In this document: positions 3,453 through 4,156 of the stretch, in pieces
Layout: each line of letters opens with the position of its first letter
How positions within the stretch are numbered: the stretch's first letter is position 1
DNA from: a virus
Direction: 5' to 3' (one strand)
Virus genome (UHGV): UHGV-0350838
Length of the DNA stretch: 10,201 nt
Notes under the pieces: model-generated
What the model was told of the DNA's origin: nothing
The model's input: the letters and a program-made list of their open reading frames with translations, nothing else
Databases searched by the model: none
Made by a program: the position numbers and the translations under genes

Positions 3453-3470
3453 TGGTGGCCTTTATTTTTT
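3443..3470 (+). terminator. Putative intrinsic terminator overlapping the ral stop codon
   Basis: GGCTGCC-TGAT-GGTGGCC stem (7 bp, two G-U pairs) followed by TTTATTTTTT. Confidence 0.5.
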
Positions 3471-3511
3471 GGCCGTAAATAATTTCATGCTTATTACAAT
3501 CAAGGGGATAT

Positions 3512-3961
3512 ATGGAAGAACAAGCAAACAAGATTCTCGTAGAACTACTGCAAAAAGCCAGCAATGGAATAGACGCGGCTGTTTCATTCAGCCAAGCGCA
3601 GATTCCTGATGTTGTTCATCAGTTGCTGCTATGGAATATGGTTGACAGTCTGATTAAAACATTAATAGCCATTCTAACAATCCCACTGGTTTTCTGGTTT
3701 ATGAAGAAGCAGTGCCAAAGAGTTGAGACAGGTAAAATCGGTGATGAAGGATACTCATGGGAGAGGGGAAATCCCAAATACAGGCCGACAATGGTTTGGG
3801 ATAGCAAGGGAGATATTAACCTTCTTATCATGCCATTGGTTGGAGTTTTGACTCTGTGGGGGATTTTTATTATTGGTGTAGTAACCAATATGACTTGGTT
3901 AAAAATTTGGCTGGCCCCAAAGCTTTACCTTATCGAATATGCAGCATCATTGGTTAAGTAA
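3512..3961 (+). CDS. Hypothetical membrane protein, 149 aa, two predicted transmembrane helices
   Basis: ORF with AAGGGG Shine-Dalgarno 4-5 nt upstream; hydrophobic stretches LIKTLIAILTIPLVFWFM and INLLIMPLVGVLTLWGIFIIGVV; flanked by terminator-like hairpins on both sides. Not a protein I recognise. Confidence 0.7.
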   Translation: MEEQANKILVELLQKASNGIDAAVSFSQAQIPDVVHQLLLWNMVDSLIKTLIAILTIPLVFWFMKKQCQRVETGKIGDEGYSWERGNPKYRPTMVWDSKGDINLLIMPLVGVLTLWGIFIIGVVTNMTWLKIWLAPKLYLIEYAASLVK

Positions 3962-3965
3962 TTTC

Positions 3966-3991
3966 AGGCCGCATAGTCGGCCTTTATTTTT
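3966..3991 (+). terminator. Intrinsic terminator after the 149-aa gene
   Basis: AGGCCG-CATAGT-CGGCCT hairpin followed by TTATTTTT. Confidence 0.65.
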
Positions 3992-4110
3992 GGCATAAAC
4001 AACAGAATAAACACAGCACTGTGTATTCATTCCAACGAGTGAATACACGGAGCAATGTCGCTCGTAACTAAACAGGAGCCGACTTGTTCTGATTATTGGA
4101 AATCTTCTTT

Positions 4111-4138
4111 GCCCTCCAATGTGAGGGCGATTTTTTAT
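4111..4138 (+). terminator. Intrinsic terminator upstream of ea10
   Basis: GCCCTC-CAATGT-GAGGGC hairpin followed by GATTTTTTAT. Confidence 0.65.
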
Positions 4139-4156
4139 CTGTGAGGATATGAACAG

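Follow-up and report, generated by a model that had tools for sequence, protein, structure and literature searches.

A single-gene accessory cassette encoding a predicted two-helix protein of the PHROG 3054 family, between ral and PreS in a lambda-like prophage

The viral genome UHGV-0350838 is represented here by a stretch of 10,201 nucleotides (nt), referred to as the window, in which the map of open reading frames (ORFs) and family scans reveal the left-to-right layout of a lambda-like early-left (PL) operon. We show that this lambda-like prophage carries a single-gene accessory cassette of ~522 base pairs (bp) in a variable slot between the restriction alleviation gene ral and the PreS/tL2a element, upstream of ea10. 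The one gene of the cassette encodes a protein of 149 amino acids (aa) with two predicted transmembrane (TM) helices; it is a new allele of a catalogued, uncharacterised family, PHROG 3054 or the Sf6 gene-34 family, and not a novel gene. Comparison of alleles further shows that cargo ORFs are exchanged inside a constant leader and terminator, and that the TM hairpin and loop are swapped between alleles while the termini of the protein are kept. We are highly confident of the family identity and of the cassette architecture. The best explanation of the locus as a whole, which joins cassette and family to an exclusion-like role in the lytic phase, is plausible though somewhat doubtful.

The cassette and its socket

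The first-pass annotation of the window had described a ral-ea10 interval of about 0.70 kb holding a 149-aa ORF with a Shine-Dalgarno sequence and two hydrophobic helices, all of which is borne out. The interval measures 704 bp (3453-4156), the Shine-Dalgarno sequence AAGGGG (3502-3507) lies 4 nt before the ATG, and 19-residue Kyte-Doolittle windows rise above 1.6 at residues ~39-65 and ~100-130. The corresponding lambda interval had been put at about half this length and said to lack the gene; alignment to lambda upholds the shorter length and the absence of the gene, but the interval in lambda (NC_001416) is 182 bp, or about a quarter. The ~522 bp extra are absent from lambda, 21, 434-hybrids and others alike, with both flanks 97-98% identical (megablast and a five-phage alignment). 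At either end of the insert stands the direct repeat GGCCTTTATTTTT(T)GG (3457-3472 and 3979-3994; 0.01 expected by chance), which is the 3′ half of a terminator plus its T-run, i.e. a duplicated terminator half; lambda has the hairpin element at the ral stop codon once. The cassette is present in 111 of 5,426 complete Escherichia coli genomes (~2%), and the flanking sequence in ~42%. Over window positions 3420-4160 there is 100% identity with an E. coli SEC470 prophage adjoining ybhC, the gene beside the attachment site at which lambda integrates. In RefSeq the ORF is named "hypothetical protein" (WP_000392424.1).

Three terminator-like hairpins had been thought to bracket the gene. Two of them, at 3441-3462 and 3966-3983, do so, but the third (given as 4111-4138) is the lambda tL2a/PreS terminator. 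In lambda, an Hfq-bound small RNA (sRNA) of ~88 nt, processed to ~68 nt, has been described between ral and ea10; this RNA, LPR1 (renamed PreS), has a GC hairpin and poly-U at its 3′ end, is made in the lytic cycle only and activates translation of host dnaN (bioRxiv 10.1101/2024.10.31.621285). Window positions 4024-4138 differ from lambda by one base. Positions 4050-4140, which share with lambda PreS the location between ral and ea10 and the GC hairpin and poly-U end, are by this identity the PreS/LPR1 orthologue. In the Sf6 record the distal hairpin carries the label "tL2A, homology to lambda", and the sequence preceding it is entered as boundary sequence bsq4; the name tL1 for the hairpin at 4109-4130 is unsupported by the sources, which give tL2a or tL2A. 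As the distal hairpin is the PreS terminator, the cassette lies between ral and the PreS gene, and the other two hairpins alone frame it. The hairpin at 4011-4058 may be a processing structure or site that makes the PreS 5′ end. Hairpin/T-run sites are ~2.6-fold enriched in the whole window (25, compared with 9.6 ± 3.0 in shuffles), many of the terminator-like hairpins being found at gene ends inside the antiterminated operon.

The gene had also been taken for a separately punctuated module, and this is supported by a constant leader and 3′ hairpin that frame different alleles of the gene as well as an unrelated gene. A 52-nt leader reaching the ATG is common to four alleles (window, N7, CUS-3 and Gally), as is a trailer beginning a few nt past the stop codon, GGCCGCATAGTCGGCCTTTATTTTTGGCATAAACAACAG. 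In E. coli EC332 the identical leader, together with the identical trailer and 3′ hairpin, surrounds an unrelated 62-aa DUF7167 gene; the cargo of this 'type A socket' has therefore been swapped almost exactly from start to stop codon. A second junction, displaced by a few bases, holds other small genes (e.g. in 2G7b and E. coli BUCT2930); these 'type B' insertions rejoin at the start of the 4011-4058 hairpin.

Punctuation of this kind is not confined to the type A socket. Family copies in the PL operons of HK639, Siccibacter and Leclercia have hairpin/T-run sites on either side that differ in sequence. A second, unrelated socket, found in HK639 (locus L058, 2900-3550) and in loci L021, L022 and L024 (~4900-5550), has the upstream sequence ...GGCGGCCTTTTTT...GGGTAACTRCAGAGGGTAA and the downstream sequence CCCGCTCCGGCGGGTTTTTTAT. 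With a second, unrelated socket around the same family, terminator bracketing must have arisen or been kept more than once. The possibility that leader, ORF and terminator form one constant mobile unit was rejected, since copies in other slots are flanked differently and a second socket type exists.

Two further observations concern the left part of the locus. In phage Gally (L002, 2764-3015) and in E. coli EC332 (L016, 1264-1515) the place of ral is taken by an unrelated gene of 83 aa; its final codons (…NKAA) and stop-codon hairpin are the same as those of ral, which places a recombination joint inside the 3′ end of ral. In addition, the 22-nt initiation region of the 149-aa ORF (3502-3523) is a 20/22 copy of 3172-3193, the start of orf28 upstream of ral (AAGGKGATATATGGAAGAASAA; 0 expected by chance), and both products start with MEE. 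This shared region may be a recombination linker or a strong ribosome-binding module.

The cassette resembles the lambdoid morons and boundary sequences of Sf6, CUS-3 and HK620-type phages in several respects. An extra gene occurs in some relatives only, present or absent between conserved flanks that would permit homologous exchange; it ends in a terminator-like hairpin and T-run of its own (3966-3983), and it adjoins an annotated boundary sequence (bsq4 in Sf6). It differs from the classic moron of promoter, gene and terminator in its ORF-precise exchange of cargo within a constant leader and in having no detected promoter of its own: a consensus scan called no sigma-70-like promoter site between 3453 and 3512, and the best promoter-like candidate picked by eye in the leader, TTGGCC-17-TATTAC, is weak (8/12), the last T of its −10 element being missing. 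Transcription of the gene would be only from PL, by N-modified polymerase, so that the product would be made early in lytic growth and not at all in the repressed prophage.

The leaning of the first-pass annotation was towards a different setting, in which the prophage would express an exclusion protein in the lysogen, as with sieB or rexAB. A small membrane protein beside sieB and ral would suit such a function, as would its presence or absence between near-identical phages, which recalls classic lysogenic-conversion morons. However, besides the lack of a called promoter in the leader, a hairpin and T-run stand directly upstream of the gene, its orientation is that of PL, which is repressed in lysogens, and the family is found in strictly lytic phages and elsewhere is tightly coupled to late genes. 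Exclusion in the lysogen is the least supported of the functional options and, in our view, very improbable.

The PHROG 3054 family

Over residues 1-149 the ORF product matches positions 1-137 of the 137-position profile phrog_3054 (unknown function) with an E-value of 2.8e-64, and all 109 aligned relatives match PHROG 3054. At 90% identity the homologues fall into 516 clusters, every one of them "hypothetical", and at 50% identity into 1,879 (E ≤ 1e-3). The exact protein is named "Phage transmembrane protein" in UniRef and occurs on at least 1000 contigs. Named members comprise Sf6 gene 34 (AAQ12224.1), CUS-3 ECRS218_0047, N7 ORF35, HK639_44 and phi92 gp220, none with an assigned function. 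In Sf6, CUS-3 and N7 the family gene stands directly after ral and before the boundary sequence/tL2A, and in HK639 it lies in the PL operon. The gene is absent from lambda, as had been supposed, and from 21, but it is already catalogued, as hypothetical only, in other lambdoid phages (Sf6, CUS-3, N7 and HK639).

Homology and structure searches, suggested at the outset as a check, led to PHROG 3054 but to no match for the ORF in Pfam (E ≤ 1), NCBIfam or PADLOC and to no analogue in the PDB. Among the 109 relatives, Pfam scans gave only scattered single spurious TM matches, none of them to PF14373 at E ≤ 0.01. PADLOC-DB returned no family for the ORF, and for the N7 allele only non-significant 2TM-effector matches (E 0.058 and 0.11). 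A profile search of PDB sequences gave only non-significant matches to TM segments of G-protein-coupled receptors (E ≥ 0.15); a Foldseek search with an AlphaFold2 model of the protein gave no match in the PDB and only uncharacterised phage proteins in BFVD. Literature searches on Sf6 gp34 and on two-TM exclusion proteins of lambdoid phages turned up no work on the family.

Alignments of 41 and 109 relatives confine the near-invariant residues to positions 1-42 and 128-149 (WLKIWIAPKLYLIEYAASLVK), the TM helices and the loop varying in both sequence and length. The near-invariant residues are L9, F26, P32, V34, Q37, L38, L39 and W41 in the N-terminal segment, and I132, A135, P136, K137, L140, E142, Y143, A145 and L147 in the C-terminal one. 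The window protein bears the full family signature, namely an N-terminal block (F26/P32/V34/Q37/L38/L39/W41), two TM helices and a C-terminal W-L-K-I-W-x-A-P-K-x-Y-L-x-E-Y; exactly two TM segments are found in 232 of the 235 relatives that bear it.

Codon comparisons with same-length orthologues from other genera show strong purifying selection on the gene. The ratio of nonsynonymous to synonymous substitution rates (dN/dS) is 0.07-0.24 for the whole gene, and by segment 0.02-0.06 (N-terminal), 0.02-0.14 (C-terminal) and 0.28-0.78 (TM2). That the ORF might be spurious or decaying could be argued from its lack of an assigned function, of a Pfam model and of a phenotype in one screen. Set against this are the invariant residues across the 1,879 clusters, the low dN/dS overall and in the N-terminal segment, and the many contigs carrying the exact protein; by these conservation data the idea is effectively refuted.

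Among alleles within the type A socket, nucleotide identity is 89-97% over the first 42 codons and 78-99% over the last 22, compared with an unalignable 41-48% in the middle. Over this middle (TM1, loop and TM2) the window protein shares 18-21% aa identity with the Sf6, CUS-3 and N7 alleles, and yet Sf6 gp34 is 86-95% identical to it in the N-terminal 42- and C-terminal 22-residue blocks. The HK639 allele shares a loop motif with the window protein and has a different TM2. With conserved ends and an unalignable middle, the gene is therefore an intragenic mosaic. The loop motif, GYSWERGxPKYRPTxVWD, is kept within one middle type and is also found in HK639, Leclercia and others, which argues that the loop is not a mere linker.

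The existence of the family is not restricted to lambdoid phages. By tblastn it was found in 181 of 50,697 phage records, 63 of which are from Vibrio phages. Members occur in strictly lytic N4-like Schitoviridae, adjoining dUTPase or thymidylate synthase, in the lytic phi92-like Justusliebigvirus group, and in Pseudomonas, Klebsiella and Rheinheimera phages; in the N4-like and phi92-like phages the gene is among early/middle genes. The Ralstonia jumbo phage RsoM2USA (L060, 1669-3403) encodes three clustered paralogues, gp387, gp390 and gp392 (E 1e-34 to 6e-40), with shared and conserved termini, differing TM/loop middles and short terminal extensions. A scan of one genome per species yielded 37 prophage loci, where neighbours include S24 repressors, RecT, KilA-N, Rz, holins, endolysins, Q antiterminators and terminases. 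Further slots lie after NinG (nin region), after KilA-N/ANT genes and, in one P22-like contig, between the tail genes gp4 and gp10; four metagenome contexts also inspected (P0138, P0141, P0159 and P0192) proved too short or too sparsely annotated to contribute. A conserved partner gene was considered and rejected, as the neighbours in seven unrelated contexts have no mutual similarity; a fixed tie to ral or the PL operon was rejected on account of these slots, of that after Rz and of the members in lytic phages. Given such varied slots, the timing of expression must differ among phages (early, middle or late), which argues against a role tied to one stage of infection.

The slot after Rz deserves separate consideration. 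In Buttiauxella, Proteus, Providencia and Xenorhabdus prophages the family gene directly follows Rz, with a gap of 4-8 nt or with overlapping stop and start codons; the same is probably true of a Dryocola prophage (same coordinates; the Rz ORF there has no scan of its own), and PhiR46_1 has a 76%-identical copy between Rz and Nu1. Together with the pooled neighbour scan (Rz 7 ORFs, holin 4, plus endolysins), these positions suggest a regulator of lysis or envelope integrity, which could be antiholin-like or spanin-associated, or could block premature lysis or lysis from without. Many holins and antiholins are small two-TM proteins, as this protein is. The likeness to class II holins (two TM, ~65-95 aa, in a lysis cassette by the endolysin) is limited to the two TM segments, since the protein has 149 aa, is encoded in the PL operon and matches no holin family in Pfam or NCBIfam; some relatives do follow Rz, but downstream of a separate Phage_holin_8 gene. 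Moreover, the copies of the window, Sf6, CUS-3, N7 and HK639 belong to the early-left operon and are distant from the lysis cassette, the N4-like copies adjoin genes of nucleotide metabolism, and the copy on the P22-like contig is flanked by tail genes. The region from Rz to cos is in any case a classic insertion slot that takes up unrelated extra genes, for example lambda bor. A lysis role is therefore judged rather unlikely.

A possible role at the cell envelope

Over the 232 two-TM members, net charges are −3.4 for the N-terminal tail, +1.3 for the loop and +1.5 for the C-terminal tail, and in 211 of them lysine and arginine are more numerous on the side of the helices that faces the loop. 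Under the positive-inside rule, such a bias in charge would put the N-terminus out, the loop in and the C-terminus out. The protein would accordingly insert in the inner membrane as a helical hairpin, its acidic N-terminal 42 and amphipathic C-terminal 22 residues lying together on the periplasmic face and its basic loop in the cytoplasm. Acting as a stand-alone protein, it might render the infected cell refractory to a second phage, through superinfection exclusion or a block to DNA entry, much as T4 Imm or P22 SieA does; a shared activity or contact with the host would come from the conserved termini, and specificity from the exchangeable middle. A function in conflict at the level of the envelope, most simply superinfection exclusion during lytic growth, is favoured because of the single-gene autonomy of the cassette, its accessory distribution and its hot spots by ral and sieB, as well as the exchangeable middle types, the diversification of paralogues and the early expression here. 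This functional proposal is tentative and open to considerable doubt.

Known exclusion proteins offer analogies. P22 SieA is likewise a small inner-membrane phage protein that works alone and is encoded at an accessory position, and in its family the TM regions diverge strongly while a single soluble motif is conserved (PMC10883804). However, SieA contains 3-4 TM segments together with a cytoplasmic motif, FxRYPxEAxxFNK (PMC10883804), whereas the 149-aa protein has two, and inspection shows the motif to be absent. The two are not similar in sequence, and SieA is expressed by the prophage, in contrast to the apparent PL dependence of the 149-aa gene; the resemblance would be one of behaviour only. 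T4 Imm (PF14373) comes close to the proposed role as an early two-TM protein that blocks secondary DNA entry in lytic growth, but its 83 aa include neither the 42-residue N-terminal block nor the 22-residue C-terminal one, and the ORF has no PF14373 match at E ≤ 1. The SieB match (PF14163) in the window belongs to the neighbouring minus-strand gene (2457-3038) and not to this ORF.

Several points weigh against exclusion. A 121-aa allele, orf47 (AEW47744.1, "UDP0047"), was among the 200 accessory genes screened in ECOR strains against T2-T7, P1 and lambda (Silas et al.), and it is not listed among the exclusion hits of that screen (UDP79, UDP183, cor and imm), nor among its counter-defence or conditional-lethal/toxicity hits; the authors describe the screen as poorly able to detect exclusion. 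The topology comes from a charge count only, the C-terminal tail is net positive and short-loop alleles break the trend. The AlphaFold2 model is all-helical with a low-confidence loop and a moderate predicted local distance difference test (pLDDT) score of 72. Similarity to Imm, SieB, SieA or the PADLOC models was not found, and several family copies are translationally coupled to Rz. Finally, the termini are common to Vibrio, Pseudomonas, Ralstonia and enterobacterial phages with unrelated injection machineries, and a conserved host target therefore fits better than recognition of an incoming phage. The favoured function is proposed with low confidence.

That last consideration leads to counter-defence or host takeover, in which the conserved termini at the membrane surface would bind a conserved component of the host's inner membrane or periplasm and neutralise or redirect it in lytic growth. 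Candidate targets include a membrane-associated abortive-infection effector, a protease complex, and the division or envelope-synthesis machinery. The conservation of the termini across distant hosts and virion types, including the strictly lytic N4-like and phi92-like phages, makes such a host-directed role nearly as plausible as exclusion. The gene also lies by ral, and Ral-containing accessory regions have been described as enriched in counter-defence genes (10.1101/2023.04.06.535777); its operon includes the other host-directed small proteins cIII, kil and gam. On the other hand, no host-sensitising or toxic phenotype is reported for orf47 in the ECOR screen, the family-library scans gave no homology to known anti-defence proteins, and the discrete middle types and the paralogue triplet suggest a variable rather than a conserved target. 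We consider counter-defence unlikely, though worth keeping in view.

A broader form of the envelope reading takes PHROG 3054 as a new and very widespread class of modular inner-membrane proteins, in which an outer-face module of N- and C-termini has a common activity and the hairpin and loop set specificity. That specificity could concern the choice of incoming phages to be excluded, or of the host or lysis component under control. This generalisation is speculative, and we think it improbable rather than remote.

Window context and significance

The features of the window are collected in Table 1. Downstream of the cIII thermoregulator follow gam, bet and exo, and then xis and int.

Table 1. 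Positions of the cassette, its parts and its neighbours in the window (residue numbers for segments of the protein)
Feature	Position	Strand	Basis and remarks
Repressor gene	1206-1856		ORF map and family scans
N-like gene	2168-2440		ORF map and family scans
sieB	2457-3038	minus	SieB PF14163, E 2.5e-22
ral (restriction alleviation), conserved left flank of the slot	3252-3452	+	PF11058 Ral, E 1.7e-48; 98% nt identity to lambda
Terminator-like hairpin over the ral stop codon	stem 3441-3462, T-run to 3472	+	−13.9 kcal/mol; 3′ arm and T-run are the left repeat copy
Stretch missing from lambda, ~522 bp	3455-3977	+	Five-phage alignment and interval lengths; junction ambiguous within the 16-18-nt repeat
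Leader of the type A socket	3463-3511	+	Conserved; contains Shine-Dalgarno sequence 3502-3507
149-aa ORF, PHROG 3054 / Sf6 gene-34 family	3512-3961	+	ATG start
N-terminal segment of the 149-aa protein	residues 1-42		Conserved, acidic
TM1, loop and TM2 of the 149-aa protein (predicted)	residues ~43-65, 66-101 and ~102-127		
C-terminal segment of the 149-aa protein	residues 128-149		Conserved; WLKIWLAPKLYLIEYAASLVK
Cassette's own terminator-like hairpin	stem 3966-3983, T-run to 3994	+	−9.7 kcal/mol; 3′ arm and T-run are the right repeat copy
Very stable hairpin conserved with lambda, outside the cassette	4011-4058	+	−23 kcal/mol, z −6.3; invariant in 5/5 aligned phages
Orthologue, by sequence, of lambda sRNA LPR1/PreS (~88 nt)	4050-4140	+	Near-identity to lambda; 5′ end inferred from the published length
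GC hairpin and U-tract, tL2a, 3′ end of PreS/LPR1	4109-4130	+	−12.9 kcal/mol, z −4.3
ea10 (DUF2528), conserved right flank	4157-4525	+	PF10800, E 2e-47
cIII thermoregulator	4585-4643		ORF map and family scans

Three regions outside the slot were noted in passing. At 1-563 (minus strand) only a 169-aa TTG-start ORF is left of the replication gene O, for which a frameshift is annotated in the SEC470 prophage, a close match; the window prophage may be replication-defective. At 7122-7398 a perfect 49-nt inverted repeat (7122-7170 / 7350-7398), each arm of which holds a terminator-like hairpin, surrounds 179 nt that are the exact reverse complement of SEC470; the segment is inverted relative to SEC470, and the inversion breaks a 71-aa ORF of the SEC470 annotation. 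Either a genuine invertible segment or an artefact of assembly could account for it. At 7884-8486 (minus strand), between exo and xis and opposed to PL, lies a 200-aa ORF with several hydrophobic segments and hairpins on either side, hypothetical in SEC470; as a candidate for a membrane protein expressed in the lysogen it is preferable to the 149-aa ORF.

As regards the locus itself, the analysis for the most part clarifies matters: the additional gene is an allele of a catalogued but unstudied accessory gene in a known variable spot. The ORF-precise swapping of unrelated cargo in a constant socket directly upstream of PreS neatly illustrates the rebuilding of lambdoid accessory regions. The family at large merits attention, both for its occurrence in phages of many Proteobacteria, temperate as well as strictly lytic, in at least four genome slots, and for its unusual build, with very strongly constrained termini and an exchangeable membrane hairpin. 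With at least 1,879 clusters at 50% identity, PHROG 3054 is among the larger phage families without a Pfam model or a function, and it is a reasonable target for experiments. Were a role in exclusion or envelope control true, many "hypothetical" prophage genes of E. coli, Salmonella and Shigella, including those of Shiga toxin (Stx) phages, could be annotated. If the modular-class reading holds, the family would be comparable in importance to Imm or SieA, and would be used by lytic and temperate phages alike across the Proteobacteria.

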